DNA of 64,000 bases from an uncultured Gemmatimonadales bacterium (GCA_963701965.1 OY969695.1:1088001-1152000); one strand, 5' to 3'; positions 6,654 to 22,731 are shown, counted from the first letter of the stretch. Numbers and translations are program-made. The notes: generated from the sequence alone by a model not told the origin.

Positions 6654-8093
6654 ATGATTATTCGCCTGCTGGCCGGTCTCGCCTTGCTCCCGCTCGCCGC
6701 CGGAGCGCAAATCACCCAAGCCGAGTACGCGGCGCGCCGCGACTCGCTGGCGGCACGGGTCGACAGTGGCGTCATCTTCCTCGCCGGCGCGCGAGAGACG
6801 ATCGACCACTACCCGCCGTTCAAGCAACGGGCGCCGTTCCGGTATCTCACCGGCTTCCTGGCGCCCGACGCGTCGCTGGTCATGGTGCGGCGGGGCGGCC
6901 ACACCACCGCCACGCTCTATATCCAGTCGCCCGATCCACGGCGCGAGTTCTACAACGGCGGCCGCACGACGCCGGAGGCGATCACCCGGGAGACGGGCAT
7001 GGCGGCCGCCCGGAACGAGCGGCTGCGGGCCGATCTCGACTCGCTCACCGGCACGGGACTCACGCTGTGGGTCGCGAGCGACGCCGAAGCGGACGAGTTC
7101 ATCCGGGACGACTCATTGAGCTTCGGGAGCGCAATGGTGCGCAACCTGAGGGCCGCGCACCCCTATCTGGTCGTCAAGGACGCCACGCCGATGCTCGACC
7201 AGCTGCGCGCGCGAAAGAGCGCGGCCGAGGTCGCGTTGCTCGAGCGCGCGGCGGCCATCTCCGTCCTGGGGCACAAAGCGGTCTTGAGCGAGATCGCGCC
7301 CAACAAGAACGAATACGAAGTCCAGGCCCTCATGGAGTACACGTTCCGGCGAAACGGCGGCGATCTCGAGCCGGCGTACGCCTCGATCGTCGGGTCGGGA
7401 CCGAATAGCACGACGTTGCACTACGATCGCGACGACCGGGCCATGCACGCGGGCGAGATGCTGGTGATGGACTGCGCGACCAGTTATCAGGGCTACGCCG
7501 CCGACATTACGCGGACGGTACCCGTGAGCGGCGTCTTCACGGCCGACCAGCGGACGATCTACCAGATCGTGCGCGACGCCCAAGCCGCCGGGGAGCGGCA
7601 GATCAAACCGGGCGTACCCGCGAAAACGGAGCGCGACTCGATCCAGGCCGTGGTGGCCGCGGGACTGGCCAAGCTCAAGTTGATCGACTCGGTCACGGCG
7701 GTGGTCGACGCGCCCAAGGGATTTTGCGGGCCGCGCGACACATGCCCACAGGCGTCGCTGTTCCTGCCCCACGGGCCCGGCCATGGCTTGGGCCTCGACG
7801 TCCACGATCCGGCGCAGTTCTACTATGCGCCGGCAATGGCCTTCGGCGTCGGCAATGCGCTGACGATCGAACCGGGGATCTACATCAAGCCCTCGATTCT
7901 CGATATCCTGCCGGACACCCCGCGGAACCGCGCGTATGCGGATCGTGTGCGGCCGCTGCTGCAGCGCTATGCCAACATCGGGGTTCGGATCGAGGACGAC
8001 TACGTGCTGACGGCGGATGGGCTCAAGCGCATCACGCCCGCGCCACGCGAGGCGGCCGAGATCGAGAGTTTGATGAAGCGAGTCGTGCAGTAG
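6654..8093 (+). CDS. Xaa-Pro aminopeptidase (M24B), secreted
   Basis: Signal peptide. D..SYQGYAAD, HGLGLDVHD, TIEPG, RIEDD metal ligands. Confidence 0.92.
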   Translation: MIIRLLAGLALLPLAAGAQITQAEYAARRDSLAARVDSGVIFLAGARETIDHYPPFKQRAPFRYLTGFLAPDASLVMVRRGGHTTATLYIQSPDPRREFYNGGRTTPEAITRETGMAAARNERLRADLDSLTGTGLTLWVASDAEADEFIRDDSLSFGSAMVRNLRAAHPYLVVKDATPMLDQLRARKSAAEVALLERAAAISVLGHKAVLSEIAPNKNEYEVQALMEYTFRRNGGDLEPAYASIVGSGPNSTTLHYDRDDRAMHAGEMLVMDCATSYQGYAADITRTVPVSGVFTADQRTIYQIVRDAQAAGERQIKPGVPAKTERDSIQAVVAAGLAKLKLIDSVTAVVDAPKGFCGPRDTCPQASLFLPHGPGHGLGLDVHDPAQFYYAPAMAFGVGNALTIEPGIYIKPSILDILPDTPRNRAYADRVRPLLQRYANIGVRIEDDYVLTADGLKRITPAPREAAEIESLMKRVVQ

Positions 8094-8095
8094 GC

Positions 8096-8812
8096 CTAGC
8101 GGGCGGCCAGGGCGGTCAGGGCGAAACCCGCGGCGATCCAACCCGCCGCGGCCAGGCGGGCCCGCGACCCAATCGGCAGCGAGCGCAGCAGGGACGCCGC
8201 AATGTAAAGAAACGTGCCGGCGGCGATCGGGATCATCGCGTTGGCCAGCCCGCGCGCGTGCGCCCCGACGAGCAGCGTCACGAGTGCCCCGCCGAGCGCA
8301 CCGACCCCGGTCAGTACGTTGAGGGCGTAGGCCCGGCGAACGGACAGTCCGCCGTGCAGGAAGATCCCCAGGCTGCCCATCTCCCGCGGCAGTTCGTGGA
8401 GCCCGACGGCGACGGTCGCCAGGATCCCCAGGGAGGGGTTGGCGAGGAACGAGGCAGCGATCAACATCCCATCGATGGCGTTGTGGAACACATCGCCCAC
8501 AAAGTTGAGCCACACGATCCGGCGTTCCGCGCATCCCGCGGCGAAGCGCTGAAACAGATGGTCGAGGAGTCCGAAGCCGGCTATTCCGGCGACGACAGCT
8601 AGGGCGATGCTCGCGCGCGAGGCGCCACTACTGAGCGCGTCCGGTATCAGATCGAACAGGACCGCACCGGCCAAAGCGCCGATCGCCACGCGCGCCATGG
8701 GTGGCACGGCGCGTTTCACGACAGCGGGATCGAAGAAGAGGACAAGAGCGCCGACAAGCGGCAGGGCGCTGAGCACCCCGACAGCGGCCATGCTCTGAAT
8801 CCATACGGACAT
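8096..8812 (-). CDS. ZIP-family metal transporter
   Basis: FHNAIDG and HELPRE motifs, multiple TM helices. Confidence 0.88.
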   Translation of the reverse strand: MSVWIQSMAAVGVLSALPLVGALVLFFDPAVVKRAVPPMARVAIGALAGAVLFDLIPDALSSGASRASIALAVVAGIAGFGLLDHLFQRFAAGCAERRIVWLNFVGDVFHNAIDGMLIAASFLANPSLGILATVAVGLHELPREMGSLGIFLHGGLSVRRAYALNVLTGVGALGGALVTLLVGAHARGLANAMIPIAAGTFLYIAASLLRSLPIGSRARLAAAGWIAAGFALTALAAR

Positions 8813-16661: not shown

Positions 16662-17243
16662 GTGAACGATCCCGACGCCATCGCCGCCGCCATCGCCCGC
16701 AACGTCCACGGGCTCCGCGTCCAGCGCGCGTGGACGCTCGACGTGCTGGCCACCCGGGCGGGCGTCAGCAAAGCGATGCTCGTGCAAATCGAGCAGGCGC
16801 GCACCAACCCCAGCATCGCGACGCTGTGCCGCATCGCCGACGCGTTCGGGGTCACTGTGCCGGCGCTCGTCGATCTCGACGAAGCGCCGCCCGTCCGCGT
16901 CGTCCGGGCGGCTGACGCTCCAGCACTCTGGCACGGCGCGCCGGGCAGCGTCGGCACACTGCTGATCGGCTCGGGCGGCCCGGACCGCACCGAGCTCTGG
17001 GATTGGCGCATGGCGCCAGGTGACGGATATGACGGCGGTCCGCACCCGGCCGGCACCCGCGAGCTGCTCTACGTGGTCGCGGGCACCCTGACGCTCGTCC
17101 TCGACGGCGAATCGACGACCGCCGCACGCGGCGACACCGTGCTGTTTCGCGGGGACCGCCCGCACCGATACGAGAATGCGGGTCGCGCGCCGCTGCGGTT
17201 CGTCATGGTGACGATCGAGCCAGCGCCTCGGCCGGCGCCGTGA
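16662..17243 (+). CDS. XRE-family HTH + cupin transcriptional regulator
   Basis: TLDVLATRAGVSKAMLVQIEQARTNPSI HTH, cupin H...E...H. GTG start. Confidence 0.9.
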   Translation: MNDPDAIAAAIARNVHGLRVQRAWTLDVLATRAGVSKAMLVQIEQARTNPSIATLCRIADAFGVTVPALVDLDEAPPVRVVRAADAPALWHGAPGSVGTLLIGSGGPDRTELWDWRMAPGDGYDGGPHPAGTRELLYVVAGTLTLVLDGESTTAARGDTVLFRGDRPHRYENAGRAPLRFVMVTIEPAPRPAP

Positions 17244-18845
17244 GCGCCTCCCGGATGGCTGGCGCACCAATGCGAGCCGCCCACGGGCGAAATCGCTCGT
17301 CCTCTTCGCGCGTCGCCAGATAAGCGCGGAAAAGACCCTCCAGCGCCTCGCCCGCCGCCGACGCCCGCACCCGCACCCCCGCGCGCTTCGCGAAATTGGC
17401 ATCGGGCCCGAGCCCGCCTCCGACGAACACGTCGAACCCATCGGCGGCCGGTGTCAGACCGTCGGGGGATTCGATGCGGACCCCCTGCAGTCCGACGTCG
17501 GCAATCCAATGCTGCCCACAGGCGTTCGGGCAGCCGGTCACGAACACCTTCATGTGGGACGAGAACTCGGGAAGCCGACGCTCCAAGTCGGCGATGAGGC
17601 CGAGTCCAAACCACTTGGTCTCCACGAGCGCCAGCTTGCAATACTCGCTGCCCGTGCAGGCGAGCACGCCCCGCCGGAACGCCGAGCCCTCCAGCGGCGG
17701 CGCCCCGCTCCGCGCCGCGGCCCGTCGCAACGCCTCGACGGTCGACGCCCGAATGCCCAGCACCGCAATGTTCTGCATGACGGTCGTGCGCAAGGCGCCG
17801 CTGCCATACGCGTCGGCGAGATCGGCAATGGCGCGGAGCGAGGCCGGCGTCAGCCGGCCCGCGGCGACCGAGAACCCGGCGTAGACGGTATCGGCCGCCT
17901 TCTCCGGATTGATGCCGACGTGATCACGGAACGATCCATCCGGTGGAAGCTCGGATACCCCGGGATCCAGGCGATAACCCAATCGCTGTTCGATCTCGGC
18001 CAGAAACCGTTCGGCTGTCCACCCATGCGTCAGAAAGAGAAACTTCATGCGGGCTTTCGCCCGCTGCACGCGCAGCTCATCGCTGTCCCGAAAAATCCCG
18101 GCCACCGCATCCACCACGTCCGGCACCTGATCCCAGCCCACGAACGCGTCGAGGCGTTCGGCCAGATGCGGACGGGTGGAGAGTCCGCCGCCGACCCGCA
18201 GGCTGAAACCGACGTCCCGGCCCCTTCGCACAGCGGTCAACCCGATGTCGTTGATCTCGGGATAGCTGCACCAGTGCGCGCAGCCCGTGATCGAGATCTT
18301 GAACTTGCGCGGCAGATTCGCGTACAGCGGGTTGCCGTTCATGCGGCGATCGACCGCCAGCGCCACCGGAGAGGCATCGACGAGCTCGTGCGCATCAATG
18401 CCCGCCAGGGGGCAGCCGGTGACGGTGCGCGTGTTGTCGCCGCACGCACCCATACTGGTCCAGCCCACGGCGGCCAGGGCGTCCCAGATCGCCGGCACGT
18501 CCTCGATGCGCAGCCAGTGGAGTTGAAAGTTCTGCCGGTTGGTGATGTCCAGCGTCCCGCGAGCGTAGCGCTCGGACAGGTCGGCGATCGTCCGCACCAT
18601 AGCCGATGTCAGCACACCGTTCGGCGTGCGGACGCGCATCATGAAGTACCGCGTGGCATCTCCGCGGACTCCGAGGCCGTCGCCCTGGGTGTACAATCCC
18701 CAGGCCCGCAACCGCACATCCAGATCGTCGCTGGGGATCGCGTCGAATCCGCCGCGGGCGTACCGGCGGAATGTCATCGAGGATCGACCACAATGGCTTT
18801 TCCTGCTTGATGCGCTCGAATGCGCTGGGTGGGTGTCTCGGACAT
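17203..18845 (-). CDS. Ferredoxin-type siroheme sulfite/nitrite reductase (probably sulfite), with two +1 frameshifts near its 5' end
   Basis: RQNFQLH, ACGDNTR, LPRKFK, CTGSEYC and GCPNAC. Removing single bases at 18819/20 and 18770/71 gives MSETPTQRIERIKQEKPLWSILDDIRRYARGG. Confidence 0.88.
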
Positions 18846-18864
18846 GATGGGGATGGGGAGATGC

Positions 18865-18897
18865 AAAAAGGCCCGCCGGGAGAAGTCCGGGCGGGCC
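18865..18897 (-). terminator. Intrinsic terminator (attenuator) in the reductase leader
   Basis: mRNA GGCCCGCC-CGGACUUCUCCC-GGCGGGCC-UUUUU, ending 19 nt before the ATG. Confidence 0.85.
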
Positions 18898-18932
18898 AAC
18901 ACGCATCGACAAAAAATCGTCGGAACAGCGCG

Positions 18933-18986
18933 CTACGCTGGACGTCTCCGAGGACAGGGCACGGGACAACAGCGGCGCGGCATCAT
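18933..18986 (-). CDS. Cys-rich leader peptide MMPRRCCPVPCPRRRPA (longer alternative start at 19010)
   Basis: Three TGT codons. Preceded by TTGCGC-N17-CACCTT-N6-ATG and followed by an antiterminator/terminator pair. Confidence 0.7.
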   Translation of the reverse strand: MMPRRCCPVPCPRRRPA

Positions 18987-19015
18987 GCGCGCAAGGTGAT
19001 GGACATTCATCTGTC

Positions 19016-19055
19016 GCGCAAGGCTCAGCGCAAGTCTCAGCGCAAGTCTCAGCGC
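19016..19055. repeat. 12-bp tandem repeat, 3.3 copies
   Basis: GCGCAAGGCTCA GCGCAAGTCTCA GCGCAAGTCTCA GCGC. Confidence 0.9.
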
Positions 19056-20671
19056 CGAGGCAACCGGCGGCGCGCCGCCGGTCGCCGCCGCGCCGGGAGG
19101 GTCAGCGCGGCAATGATCGCGGCGGCCAATGCGAGGCCGGCCGTGATCAGAACGCCAAGCCGAAACGCCGAGACATAGGAGACGGCAACCGCGTGATCGA
19201 TCGCGTCGCGCGTCTTCTGATCGACACCGGCGGGAGGGGCGATCGCCGTCAGCTGCAGGGCCTGGCGCTGCACGGCCTGACGGACATCTGGCGTCAGACC
19301 AATGCCGGCCAGGGCATCGGTCAGCCGCAGCGCGAACCCGCGGGCCACGACGAGCCCGAGCACGGCGACGCCGAACAAGTTCGCCGCCCGGGCGATCGCG
19401 TTGTTGACGCCGGACGCGACGCCCTCGAACTCGTCGTCGACGGACGACAGAACGGCGGTGGTCAGCGGGGTCACCAGCAGTCCTATACCCAGGCCCAGGA
19501 TGACGACGCCGGGGAAGAATGTCTCCCAATACCGACCGCCGACGCCGGGGATGGCGAGCGCCGCCAGCCCGGCGGCCATGAGCAGCGAGCCCAGGGCCAG
19601 CGGCAACCGCAGGCCAACGCGGTTGGCGAGACCGGCAGACGCGCGCGAGAACGCGCCAACAAGCGCGACCATGGGCAGCAGGGCGGCGCCGGCCTCCGCC
19701 GCCGAGTAGTGGTGCACCTGGATCAGGTCGTAGGGCAGGAAAAAGAGCGCGGCCGCCATCGCGGCGTACAGCAGGAGGGTGAGGAGATTGGAGATCGCGA
19801 AGGCGCGATTCCGGAACAGAATGAGCGGCATGAGTGGCCGGGCGACGCGATCCTCGACCGCCACGAACGCGACGAGGAGCGCGAACCCGGCGATGAGCGG
19901 CAGGAGCACTACGGCGCTGACCAGTCCCGAGCGGGATGACTGCACGAGGCCAAACGTCAGTCCGCTCATCGCCAACGTGATGACCATCGCGCCAATGAAG
20001 TCAATCGGCGTGTTGCGCATGGGCGTCCCGGAGCGTTGCGGCTGACGAAGCGCTGGCACTTGGTACCACAGAATGGCGAGGACGGCGACGGCAATGGGGA
20101 TATTCAGCAGAAATACCCAGCGCCAGGAGGCGTGTTGGGCCAGCCATCCGCCGAGGACCGGGCCACCCGCCGAGACCACGGTGGTCGCCGCCGACCACGT
20201 GCCAATGGCCCGGCCCCGGTCGCCCGGCGTAAACGCGCTGCCGAGCATGGCCAGGCTCTCGGGAATGAGCATCGCCGCGCCCACGCCCTGCACCGCCCGA
20301 CTGCCGATCAGCCAACCGATGCTCGGCGAGAGGGCGCAGGCGGCCGAGGCGGCCCCGAACACAATGACGCCGGCGGCGTACACCCGTTCGCGGCCGACGT
20401 GGTCGCCGATGGCGCCGCCGACCAGAATCAGCGAACTCAGGAAGACGAGATACGCCTCGACGACCCACTGGGCGCCCACGATCGTGCTGTGGAGCTCCGA
20501 CTGGATGATCGGGAGGGCGACGTTGACGGCGGAGCCGTCAATGAACGCCATACTGGAACCGAGGATCGTCGCCGCCAGGATCCAGGCCGCGCCACCCGGG
20601 CGTGCCGGCGCGCGAGTGCCCGAGAGGCGCGCCACGGCTTCATCACACGGGGCCCTTCCAATCACTGCCAT
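19049..20671 (-). CDS. MFS transporter, DHA2 (14-TM) type
   Basis: FIDGSAVNVALP, GAIGDHVGR, WRWVFLLNIP. Confidence 0.92.
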   Translation of the reverse strand: MAVIGRAPCDEAVARLSGTRAPARPGGAAWILAATILGSSMAFIDGSAVNVALPIIQSELHSTIVGAQWVVEAYLVFLSSLILVGGAIGDHVGRERVYAAGVIVFGAASAACALSPSIGWLIGSRAVQGVGAAMLIPESLAMLGSAFTPGDRGRAIGTWSAATTVVSAGGPVLGGWLAQHASWRWVFLLNIPIAVAVLAILWYQVPALRQPQRSGTPMRNTPIDFIGAMVITLAMSGLTFGLVQSSRSGLVSAVVLLPLIAGFALLVAFVAVEDRVARPLMPLILFRNRAFAISNLLTLLLYAAMAAALFFLPYDLIQVHHYSAAEAGAALLPMVALVGAFSRASAGLANRVGLRLPLALGSLLMAAGLAALAIPGVGGRYWETFFPGVVILGLGIGLLVTPLTTAVLSSVDDEFEGVASGVNNAIARAANLFGVAVLGLVVARGFALRLTDALAGIGLTPDVRQAVQRQALQLTAIAPPAGVDQKTRDAIDHAVAVSYVSAFRLGVLITAGLALAAAIIAALTLPARRRPAARRRLPRR

Positions 20672-20694
20672 GCGAGAAGATTGGCATGGCTGCG

Positions 20695-22731
20695 CTAGTG
20701 AATGCCACGCGGGATCGCTTCCGCCCACGTCCTCGTGCGGATGACCCGGCCGTTCTCGGCGATCTCCCGCGTGACCCGGACGTGAAAGACCGCGCGGTCG
20801 GAGTGCATATCGATCACCGTGTGCAGCCGGACCGTGCGGCCGCCGCGAAGGCGAATGACGTGGGTCTCGTCGCCCAGGAACCGCGTATCGGCGGGGTCAT
20901 CATCGCGCGTCTCGTAGTGCTCCTTTTCCACATCGTCGATGGTCCGTGGGCCGATGGCGTACGCGAACCGTGTCAGGAAATCGACGGCCGTCGTCTTGGC
21001 CCCCACGTTCCGGGTGATCACGGCGCCCGGGTAGCCGGTATCGTGGATCGTGCGCGCGTCCGGCGCGTGCTCGCGCCCTCCGAGCGGCGCGAAACCCGGT
21101 GCCGGCGCACCGGGCACCGGCGCCACAATGGGGAGAACGACGGCGGATCGCGGGTCACCCGTCACCAGCCGCATGGTCATCGGCCCGGGAGTCGGCCAGG
21201 CCATCGGAAACTGCGAGTTGCTCACGGCGACCCGGGCCCGGTGTCCCGGCTCAAAGGTCCACGTCGTGAAGTGCAACCCGGTGACCAGGTCGAGCATCGT
21301 GTCGCGGGGAAGTGGCGCCGGGTCGAGTCGAGAAGCGCGCTGGGCGCCGCTCGAGAGCGCGCCAGTAATGAGCGCGACCCGGCCGTCGGGCGCTACATCC
21401 TCGAGGCGTATCGCCCAGTCGGCGATCGACGCGTCGACGCTGGCCCGCAGCGAGACGCGGGGGAATCCGATAATCTCGGCCGGGGCGGAGAACGGAGCGG
21501 TATCGTACGTGAGGCTCGCGCCGTCATCGGCGCTCAAGTCTCCGGTCGCATCATTCCACCACACCGGCACCGCGGTCCCGACACCGCCCACGTAGCGGAG
21601 CGCGTCCTGCCCCGCTGTTGGCGGACGATCCACGAGTTGATGGTCGCCGGCGAGATACCACGTCCGCCACTGCGTGCGGGCGATGGGCCAGGCCTCGCCG
21701 CGCCACGCGCCGGGGGTCGTCGTGCGATTCACATCGGGGGCCGACGAATCGCGCACGAACACGGTGAGGCGCGGCCCATCGGTGGCACCGTTGTCGACGC
21801 CTTTGAGCCAGTGATCCCACCATCGCGCCGCTTCCTCGCGCCACTCGACCGGGGGACCAGGCACGGCATCGTCGGGAAAGGTGTGATTCCACGGCCCCAC
21901 CAGGGCCTTGATCGGCGCCCGGACGCTATCCAGCATCCGCGGGACCGCATCGCGATAGCCATCGAGCAGCCCGCCGATGAGGAAGCACGGGATGGTAATG
22001 GCGTCATAGTGGAACCGGAGCGAGTTCCACCGCCACCATGGACCATCCACGTCGTGGTGCAGATACGTCAAGAGCCACGGATACGTGTCGAACCGGTTCG
22101 CGAAATAGGCCGAGTCGACCGGGTAGTCCGGCGGCGCCGGGAGGCCGTTTTCGTGATCGATCTGCAACGCGTACTGGTCGACGTGCAGCACGCCGTCGAT
22201 CTGGTGGACGTCGTCATGAAAGAGATCGTCGGTCGCATCCGCGGCGAGGATCGCTTTGAGCGCTGGCGGGCGCCGCATCGCGATCTGGATGGCGTTGAAG
22301 CCGCCCCACGAGATGCCCCACATCCCGACCGCGCCGTTGGACCCCGGGAGCGCGGCGAGATCCGCGATAATCGCGTCCGCGTCGCGCCCTTCCTGCTCCG
22401 AGTACTCCCGATCGGGTAGGTGCCCGTCGGACGAGCCCGTGCCGCGGATGTCGACCTTGGCCATGATGTATCCGCGTCGCACGAACCAGCTATACAGCGG
22501 ATAGTCGCGCTGGTAGAACGAGTCTTCCTTTCGATACGGCAGATATTCGAGGAGCACCGGGAACCGCTCGCCGCTCGTGCGCGGCGTCGGCCGCCAGTAC
22601 GTGACGGCGAGCCGCACGCCGTCGGGCATTCGCAACCATCCCCTTTCGATCGTGAACTGATAGGCACCGGGCGGCGTGCCGATCGACAGGGCCGCCGCGG
22701 ACGCGATGGCGTACGTCGCCCAGGGCAGCAA
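20695..22731 (-). CDS. CocE/NonD-family (S15) hydrolase
   Basis: YLPYRK, DIRGTGSSDG, GISWGG, GPWNH. TTG start. Confidence 0.9.
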   Translation of the reverse strand: MLPWATYAIASAAALSIGTPPGAYQFTIERGWLRMPDGVRLAVTYWRPTPRTSGERFPVLLEYLPYRKEDSFYQRDYPLYSWFVRRGYIMAKVDIRGTGSSDGHLPDREYSEQEGRDADAIIADLAALPGSNGAVGMWGISWGGFNAIQIAMRRPPALKAILAADATDDLFHDDVHQIDGVLHVDQYALQIDHENGLPAPPDYPVDSAYFANRFDTYPWLLTYLHHDVDGPWWRWNSLRFHYDAITIPCFLIGGLLDGYRDAVPRMLDSVRAPIKALVGPWNHTFPDDAVPGPPVEWREEAARWWDHWLKGVDNGATDGPRLTVFVRDSSAPDVNRTTTPGAWRGEAWPIARTQWRTWYLAGDHQLVDRPPTAGQDALRYVGGVGTAVPVWWNDATGDLSADDGASLTYDTAPFSAPAEIIGFPRVSLRASVDASIADWAIRLEDVAPDGRVALITGALSSGAQRASRLDPAPLPRDTMLDLVTGLHFTTWTFEPGHRARVAVSNSQFPMAWPTPGPMTMRLVTGDPRSAVVLPIVAPVPGAPAPGFAPLGGREHAPDARTIHDTGYPGAVITRNVGAKTTAVDFLTRFAYAIGPRTIDDVEKEHYETRDDDPADTRFLGDETHVIRLRGGRTVRLHTVIDMHSDRAVFHVRVTREIAENGRVIRTRTWAEAIPRGIH

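Follow-up and report, generated by a model that had tools for sequence, protein, structure and literature searches.

The window analysed here is a 64,000-nucleotide (nt) stretch of DNA from an uncultured Gemmatimonadales bacterium (GCA_963701965.1 OY969695.1:1088001-1152000). On its minus strand, a transporter gene of the major facilitator superfamily (MFS) is followed by a short leader and then by a gene for a siroheme-containing reductase, and it is this leader, a candidate cysteine-sensing transcription attenuator, that we characterize here (Table 1). It consists of a promoter-like pair of hexamers, a 17-codon short open reading frame (sORF) and a hairpin with a U-run. The sORF holds three TGT codons, at codons 6, 7 and 11, the last of which (18956-18954) is not conserved in orthologs. 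The terminator stem, GGCCCGCC/GGCGGGCC, occupies positions 18897-18870 and U5 positions 18869-18865; the hairpin has a calculated energy of -22.2 kcal/mol, and its 12-nt loop adds three more pairs inside. The reductase ATG at 18845 lies 24 nt beyond the stem and 20 nt beyond U5. At the end of the sORF, GGAGACGUCC (18949-18940) is complementary at 9 of 10 positions to GGACUUCUCC (18888-18879) within the terminator. An initial annotation of this DNA had described the promoter-like TTGCGC-N17-CACCTT-N6-ATG, the sORF with its three TGT codons, the 8-bp GC stem with U5 and this complementarity, and these coordinates hold. A longer, 25-codon frame from the ATG at 19010 was rejected as the leader peptide, as it begins within the promoter spacer and is missing in orthologs.

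Table 1 Features of the leader locus in the window
Feature	Coordinates	Strand	Remark
Upstream DHA2-family MFS transporter gene	19049..20728	-	Context; unlinked to the leader in orthologs
12-nt tandem repeat, 3.3 copies	19016..19055	.	Between the MFS stop codon and the promoter
-35 hexamer TTGCGC, predicted	19016..19021	-	Read from the sequence
-10 hexamer CACCTT, predicted	18993..18998	-	17 nt from the -35 hexamer, 6 nt to the sORF ATG at 18986
Leader sORF MMPRRCCPVPCPRRRPA, 17 codons, stop UAG	18933..18986	-	Gapless ATG-to-TAG alignment with orthologs
Sensing codons UGU UGU (codons 6-7)	18966..18971	-	TGTTGT invariant in 5 aligned leaders
Segment 1	18962..18979	-	Pairs with segment 2 when the ribosome is absent (1:2 helix)
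Segment 2, predicted antiterminator 5′ strand	18928..18949	-	sORF end, stop codon and GCGCGC
Inner spacer hairpin, 6 bp, 4-nt loop	18907..18922	-	Folding
Intrinsic terminator (3:4), predicted	18865..18897	-	8 bp, 1x1 mismatch and 3 bp, then U5
Siroheme/4Fe-4S reductase gene, likely SirA-type ferredoxin-dependent sulfite reductase	17203..18845	-	Profile and structure matches

The 146-nt leader has a folding energy of -62.6 kcal/mol (z -5.3, 200 shuffles). A consensus scan of positions 18000-20000, with a loop limit of 8 nt, returned 0 promoters and 0 terminators, and of the 449 places in this genome where a terminator-like site follows an sORF, 13 passed the rule 'CC and at least three Cys'. 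Because these 13 sites pass and the stock scan was empty, the leader does not stand above chance from this sequence alone. When the leader was compared with Rfam at E up to 10, the best of 12 chance-level rows scored 18.9 bits against a gathering score of 100, and the whole window gave no match at gathering level (T-box, S-adenosylmethionine (SAM) riboswitch and named leaders included). None of the 9 leader peptides compared with the NCBIfam profiles matched a family; the window peptide was entered as its 25-residue upstream-extended frame.

It is conservation in relatives that raises the leader above chance. The closest named relatives of the reductase are Gemmatimonadaceae and Gemmatimonadales records, and on this sequence the genome is likely one of the Gemmatimonadota group. 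A search of 61 genomes found 7 besides this one with a close reductase ortholog. In four of the five same-genus genomes, a 17-codon sORF, MTLRCCCLAPRI(R/P)ETQA, carrying Cys-Cys-Cys, stands immediately before the ortholog and is followed by the stem GCCCGCCGGAG, U7-8 and the reductase ATG; in the other three orthologs, a different gene ends directly upstream of the reductase. TGTTGT, GCGTAGCGCGC and GCCCGCC are invariant across the aligned leaders, and the sORF retains its length, frame, start and stop even as its peptide varies. The ortholog terminators have an 11-bp stem and U7-U8. The inner hairpin is less constant, one ortholog having a 6-bp hairpin of unrelated sequence in the same place and three others having none. 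The upstream gene also differs, in that the relatives have a 226-amino-acid ORF between the MFS gene and the leader. The element composed of the sORF and the hairpin is thus real and conserved. The ortholog comparison proposed in the initial annotation accordingly recovered the Cys-Cys codons, the stop position, the antiterminator and the terminator, with scant covariation of the stems; and the hairpin is not merely the MFS gene terminator, a reading that the annotation had itself raised, since the leader stays with the reductase as the upstream gene changes.

We extended the comparison to named relatives by scoring the best 80 of 344 loci, 78 of which had sufficient upstream DNA, with a fixed rule that called for an sORF of 8-55 codons containing CC and three Cys within 440 nt before the reductase, and a hairpin with a U-rich tail no more than 130 nt from the sORF end. 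Such leaders were found at 24/24 Acidobacteriota, 9/16 Gemmatimonadota, 1/35 Actinomycetota and 1/3 other loci, and in 2/120 and 1/75 control windows farther upstream (3/195 together). The loci L021-L024 share leader sequences with L002-L005 and so add nothing to the same-genus comparison. Inspection by eye of the 7 Gemmatimonadota misses showed that four were operon-internal, one had a 67-codon leader exceeding the cut-off, one had tandem Cys leaders, and one had only a SAM riboswitch (RF00521); on this count, by eye, a Cys leader is present at 11 of the 12 Gemmatimonadota loci in which the reductase heads the operon. Among metagenome loci chosen by protein (best 80 of 369; 72 scored), there were 21 matches and 51 misses; in 47 of the misses another long ORF terminates close upstream of the reductase, and the other 4 are at apparent operon heads. 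Applied to Trp, Tyr or Phe, the same codon rule was satisfied by no test window in either survey. TGT makes up 87 of 110 Cys codons in leader runs as against 1901 of 8952 in a genome coding proxy, and the genome has one tRNA-Cys. The genes upstream of the leader are various: an unannotated 226-amino-acid ORF, a his operon, a kinase, a nitrilase and a methionine synthase.

Several of the surveyed loci carry further regulatory elements. Ahead of the reductase and behind a methionine synthase cluster, L033:5486-5850 holds two Cys/Met-rich leaders and two terminators in tandem. SAM riboswitches (RF00521) above gathering were found at L030:4029-4286, in tandem with a Cys leader, and at L032:5609-5683; upstream of the reductase in L025-L027, a SAM-riboswitch-like motif seen by eye, below gathering, precedes long Cys leaders. 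The Actinomycetota loci L081 and L092 have sORFs of another type, RRHVD(F/L)LRVxSA..CC, with the Cys codons at the end and mostly without a terminator. L087 has a further poly-Cys leader and terminator just upstream on the opposite strand (minus strand; 8060-8149 in reverse-complement numbering), aimed at another gene.

Attenuators of the trp and his type combine adjacent cognate codons with mutually exclusive 1:2, 2:3 and 3:4 helices. To examine the folding of the leader, we represented the ribosome as an unpaired mask assumed to reach 13 nt beyond the A-site; PMC4833913 gives a footprint of about 12 nt past the A-site. For the window, segment 3 being the terminator 5′ arm plus loop, the predicted folds were 1:2 together with 3:4 in the absence of the ribosome, 2:3 with a stall at the first Cys codon, and 3:4 alone with the ribosome at the stop codon. 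This three-state switch was obtained for the window and two ortholog types, L021 behaving alike. The 1:2 helix pairs the Cys codons with the antiterminator strand (-24.0 kcal/mol in the first 70 nt), and four ortholog types form a matching helix of -21.8 to -23.0 kcal/mol. With the mask ending at nt 28-43, segment 2 is paired to 18904-18879; once the mask extends to nt 52 or farther, that pairing is gone. Before the 3′ arm has been made, the sORF end holds the 5′ arm with a probability (P) of 0.99 at mask edges 25-43 and of <=0.01 from 52; the switch point falls at mask edges 43-52 in four of five leaders and at 46-58 in the fifth. The predicted 2:3 helix is GGAGA-GUCC-GCG-UAGCGCGC against GCGUGUUG-CGC-GGAC-UCUCC, a three-part helix that is alike in two ortholog types. 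In it, GCG (18938-18936) pairs with CGC (18893-18891) in the stalled state; the CCAGCG:UGUUGG register put forward in the initial annotation is possible on paper, but the stalled-state fold predicts this other pairing. The trp/his-type geometry suggested there is borne out by the masked folds, to which the inner hairpin and the 1:2 helix are additions, as is the proposal, still a modelled one, that stalling frees the antiterminator and arrival at UAG masks it. Thus, in 5/5 leaders folded, the predicted geometry has antiterminator and terminator excluding each other, with segment 2 available while the ribosome stands at the stall codons and masked once it is at the stop.

Pairing between each leader's own parts was also assessed statistically. 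For 14 leaders, the pairing of each switch segment with its own terminator arm summed to -176 kcal/mol, compared with -126 +/- 12 when partners were permuted, and 0 of 20000 permutations reached the observed value; the 14 representatives were hand-picked from 31 leaders, some are related, and shared base composition may add to this figure. Shuffle counts combined over leaders gave p = 1.5e-4, and a thermodynamic shuffle test of 6 leaders gave z -0.6 to -1.3.

The start of the sORF has the geometry of a leaderless message. The pattern TTGnnn-N16..18-YAnnnT-N4..8-ATG, defined after some of the leaders had been seen, fits 12 of 13 leaders checked compared with 48 of 20000 random genome ATGs. One ortholog has the identical -35 hexamer and spacing, and four others have TTGCGT or TTGAAT as the hexamer. 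The 16S rRNA carries the usual anti-Shine-Dalgarno, yet the sORF has no Shine-Dalgarno sequence before it. We infer from this promoter geometry that the sORF is likely translated leaderless. The 12-nt repeat upstream gives three TTGCGC at 12-nt spacing, the last copy being the -35 hexamer; it was not seen in the orthologs compared and may have arisen by slippage duplication or be an artefact of assembly.

We then addressed the identity of the reductase on grounds independent of the leader. In NCBIfam, no model scored above cut-off, the top one being ferredoxin-nitrite reductase with 349 of 594 bits. The nearest solved structure was Mycobacterium tuberculosis NirA (PDB 1zj8; 310 bits, residues 7-504), plant nitrite reductase scoring 262. 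The window protein keeps GLYTQ, ACGD and PRKFK where the plant enzyme differs, and when aligned to 1zj8 it retains the Tyr of GLYTQ, the Cys of ACGD, K-x-K and the four Fe-S cysteines; the window protein has the cofactor and active-site motifs, as do 27-29 of 29 sequences. We take this Tyr and this Cys to be the residues of the NirA Cys-Tyr bond, and K-x-K as opposed to K-x-N to mark sulfite as opposed to nitrite reductases. The title of Schnell 2005, in the references of PMC8092218, describes NirA as a sulfite reductase containing a Cys-Tyr bond. Gene neighbours point the same way: in L031 the ortholog lies behind adenylylsulfate (APS) kinase, phosphoadenylylsulfate (PAPS) reductase and ATP sulfurylase, other orthologs lie beside siroheme synthase, and two lie behind the SAM riboswitches of L032 and L030. 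The enzyme is therefore likely a SirA-type sulfite reductase, as judged from sequence, and the assignment as a sulfite rather than a nitrite reductase, first deduced from the leader, now has the independent support of the structure match, the motifs, the neighbours and the riboswitches, the last two bearing indirectly on substrate preference. In the Acidobacteriota loci L035, L037, L040, L050, L067 and L079, the reductase is followed by siroheme synthase genes in split form and by a gene for a PF03601 membrane protein, these 3′ genes having been identified for L020 and L035.

The wider genome offers a context for this enzyme. It also encodes a precorrin dehydrogenase-family protein, a tetrapyrrole methylase and two CysK/M proteins, and PF01507 (the PAPS-reductase family) had no match in this 95%-complete genome or in one of six genus genomes. 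The lack of a PF01507 match suggests, without showing it, that sulfite is supplied from thiosulfate via rhodanese. A Cys leader of the leaderless type, MHCAVTMLCCARC..., with a terminator precedes a rhodanese (thiosulfate sulfurtransferase-like) gene at G000:C1:3577918-3578079 (L098), and its TGT TGT is kept in 6/6 genus genomes. Elsewhere in the genome, leaders with a hairpin and U-run stand before hisG (HHHH; G000:C1:2565999, L100) and the prephenate dehydratase gene pheA (FF..FF.F; 4728748, L099), both with leaderless-type promoter geometry, and before a TonB-dependent receptor gene (a Met/Cys leader, MTPSMSMCCRALC...; G000:C1:4733863-4734082, L099), whose antiterminator is strong (0/500 shuffles). 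This receptor is a candidate sulfur-compound importer. With His, Phe, Cys and Met/Cys leaders all in the same genome, attenuators built on cognate codons look commonplace in this lineage. A cluster of TauE, PAPS-reductase-family, GTPase (CysN-like) and PAPS-reductase-family genes in one genus genome is preceded by another Cys-rich leader. Inspection by eye showed no Cys leader with a terminator ahead of either of the two cysK/M genes or of the precorrin dehydrogenase-family gene in this genome, and the G002 stretch had none where an operon could plausibly begin.

Three other observations were made in these genomes. A SAM riboswitch (RF00521, 45.9 bits) with a terminator-like tail, at L230:1352-1427 (minus strand; G000:C1 near 3860750), precedes a pyridoxal-phosphate enzyme gene divergent from cysK. 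The genome has a tRNA-SeC at G000:C1:354852-354948. In two genus genomes, some rhodanese-like matches contain one in-frame TGA, possibly for selenocysteine.

Given these results, we consider it about 80% probable that the leader is a classical ribosome-mediated transcription attenuator that senses Cys-tRNA before a likely sulfite reductase gene; as far as its sequence can tell, it has every testable feature of the trp/his class except covariation. In the mechanism that we propose, transcription from a weak sigma70-type promoter would begin at the sORF ATG or immediately beside it, giving leaderless translation. At low Cys-tRNA, by analogy with trp and his, the ribosome would wait at codons 6-7 and cover segment 1, so that nt 38-59 are free to pair (about -33 kcal/mol) with the terminator 5′ arm and loop while the 3′ arm is still inside the polymerase; this early 2:3 pairing is predicted to keep the terminator from forming in time. 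With ample cysteine, the ribosome would reach UAG and cover segment 2, 3:4 would form, and transcription would stop at U5, 20 nt before the ATG. Untranslated RNA, including read-through from the MFS operon, is predicted to adopt the 1:2 and 3:4 fold and to stop as well. The reductase would make sulfide for cysteine synthesis, perhaps from sulfite that is derived from thiosulfate through the rhodanese with its own Cys leader.

A number of observations weigh against this interpretation. Three of the four genus leaders are nearly identical, which leaves about two independent comparisons, and related loci are likewise not independent, so that the survey figures are counts and not statistics. Common residues pass the codon rule too, in the named-relative windows (Leu 16/24; Arg and Gly 8/16) and in the metagenome windows (Ser 24/72, Ala 23/72, Arg 21/72); these passes arise partly through the same or shifted frames in GC-rich windows. 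The U-run is merely 5 nt in the window copy. The window antiterminator was matched by 7/100 shuffles in folding and 40/500 in pairing, its longest uninterrupted helix of 5 bp was equalled in 145/200, and only 7 of 31 leaders reached 25/500 or better in the duplex shuffle test. At equilibrium, the full-length window RNA favours the terminator in nearly all masked states (P 0.80-1.0, masks from nt 28), so the switch must be kinetic; such kinetic trapping is usual for leader-peptide attenuators. Truncated RNA of the window and L021 forms 2:3 even without a ribosome, which means that 1:2 must win by forming first. RNAalifold on three leaders found double-sided change in 0/18 pairs, and 0/12 antiterminator pairs covary among 17 Acidobacteriota leaders, where they are 99-100% paired and nearly invariant; the latter count omits the middle helix, whose register is split by the alignment. 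Compared by structural register, the window and L021 have both bases changed in 4 of the first 7 outer pairs; this is a single comparison, which a 1-nt slip of both strands explains equally well.

The start of the reductase gene also counts against it, being frameshifted as assembled, with the first 25 codons broken. Relative to L021, there is one extra base at ~18820 and one at ~18769, and the frame from 18845 ends at a TGA overlapping an in-frame ATG at 18777. Hence, the reductase ATG in the initial annotation stands as a position; that it reads into the reductase frame does not, in the DNA as assembled. The other 525 codons are open, with 74-78% identity to the four genus orthologs and all cofactor motifs. 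In a comparison based on 288 ORFs from 340 kb of one genus genome, 14 of the 154 ortholog pairs shift frame in this assembly, so the two extra bases are probably assembly errors. Contigs from the one DNA sequencing run listed for the sample (share 0.09) do not extend over the leader or over this part of the gene. We rejected a 588-codon ORF (18969-17203, from TTG) as a by-product of the frameshifts. If the extra bases are real, the ATGA overlap (18777-18774) might allow a coupled restart with a loss of ~22 residues.

These two bases bear on the possibility that the attenuator is genuine in the lineage and only a relic before a decaying gene in this genome. Their occurrence within 52 nt at the 5′ end of the gene is more clustered than the genome-wide rate suggests, the U-run is shorter and the 2:3 mismatches more numerous than in the orthologs, and the genome has no PAPS-reductase-family match; set against the commonness of indel errors in the assembly, the intact and motif-complete remainder of the gene, and the precorrin dehydrogenase-family, tetrapyrrole methylase and cysK/M genes, a relic appears very unlikely to us. 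That the hairpin is a constitutive terminator of the upstream operon or a leaky damper, with an sORF that is incidental or matters only as RNA structure, we regard as highly improbable. The leader remains with the reductase while the upstream gene varies, what is conserved of the sORF is its length, frame, start and stop and not its peptide, and a promoter downstream of the hairpin would have <=20 nt of room; these facts stand against the lack of a terminator between the MFS stop and the leader, the evidently chance nature of most of the 13 genomic sORFs passing the Cys rule, and the pairing of UGU runs in the 1:2 helix, which could account for their conservation.

A leader could also sense cysteine and act mainly on translation, the hairpin hiding the reductase initiation region and stalling freeing it. 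The genus orthologs have the ATG directly after the U-run, with the 3′ arm GGCGGG 8-15 nt before the start, where it could be hidden, and the sole experimentally studied cysteine leaders act translationally (10.1101/834739). In the window, however, no Shine-Dalgarno-like sequence lies between the stem and the ATG, the 16S anti-Shine-Dalgarno being canonical, and the hairpin and U-run are kept in all 24 Acidobacteriota leaders with the start codon some tens of nt downstream. Translational control is therefore an unlikely account, and transcription attenuation is the reading that we prefer.

On a more tentative level, at somewhat less than even odds, transcription attenuators of this kind, leaderless, terminator-based and responsive to cysteine, may form a ribosome-read sulfur regulon across Gemmatimonadota and Acidobacteriota. 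It would comprise several unrelated leader families with their own antiterminators, sometimes in tandem with each other or with a SAM riboswitch, and control sulfite reductase, sulfate activation and thiosulfate sulfurtransferase; in this genus, rhodanese and sulfite reductase would constitute a cysteine-controlled thiosulfate-to-sulfide route without sulfate activation. If the attenuator reading is true, the described gap would be filled by a terminator switch of the trp/his type that responds to cysteine and starts from a leaderless sORF, and sulfur assimilation in two poorly cultured phyla would be regulated at these operons without a dedicated sensor protein. The leader could then serve as a marker that tells sulfite from nitrite reductases and flags sulfur-related genes of unknown function, and the 122-nt unit is small enough for testing in a laboratory host.

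Published cysteine leaders are either mycobacterial and translational or predicted without terminators (10.1101/834739 and PMC1262725), and the authors of the former describe attenuation by an upstream ORF for cysteine as previously undescribed. Our literature search found neither a terminator-type cysteine attenuator nor anything on cysteine attenuators of Gemmatimonadota or Acidobacteria, subscription journals and survey supplements, which may hold predictions, being mostly outside its scope. The mechanism is textbook; the cysteine/terminator form seems new in print.

The mycobacterial leader Ms5788A is a leaderless polycysteine sORF that controls translation by hiding a Shine-Dalgarno sequence, and two adjacent Cys codons are enough for a cysteine response in such sORFs, according to Canestrari et al. 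(10.1101/834739). The leaders described here resemble that system in their poly-Cys sORF, probably also leaderless, in occurring at several loci per genome, and in their cysteine and sulfur targets, which include thiosulfate sulfurtransferase. One member of the mycobacterial list, Ms4527, is reportedly a sulfite reductase. Unlike in Ms5788A, whose Cys run ends the sORF, the Cys pair here comes early, the sORF end is the predicted antiterminator and a hairpin-U terminator follows. With its sORF end pairing with the terminator arm and no Shine-Dalgarno-like sequence before 18845, the leader is not, as read from its sequence, of the mycobacterial translational class. Runs of Cys codons in short ORFs before cys operons have been predicted in Actinobacteria by Seliverstov et al. 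(2005, PMC1262725), who found no terminator hairpins to be conserved there and suggested Rho-dependent termination. Our leader shares the Cys-codon short ORF and differs in its terminator hairpin; the 1/35 Actinomycetota loci passing our terminator rule fits that prediction. The reductase, for its part, is alike in motifs to 1zj8 within an identity class of about 45%, the activity of its clade being a predicted one.

The closest parallel is the attenuation of the trp operon of E. coli and the his operon of Salmonella, the classical leader-peptide transcription attenuators (10.1101/834739, Fig. 1 legend). The leader differs from these in the Cys codon that it would sense, its likely leaderless sORF, its Gemmatimonadota/Acidobacteriota lineage and the absence of a sequence-family match. 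It is like them in its short ORF with adjacent cognate codons, in the predicted exclusive 1:2, 2:3 and 3:4 helices, in the intrinsic terminator, as a sequence feature, before the first gene, and in a gene product that belongs to the cognate pathway.

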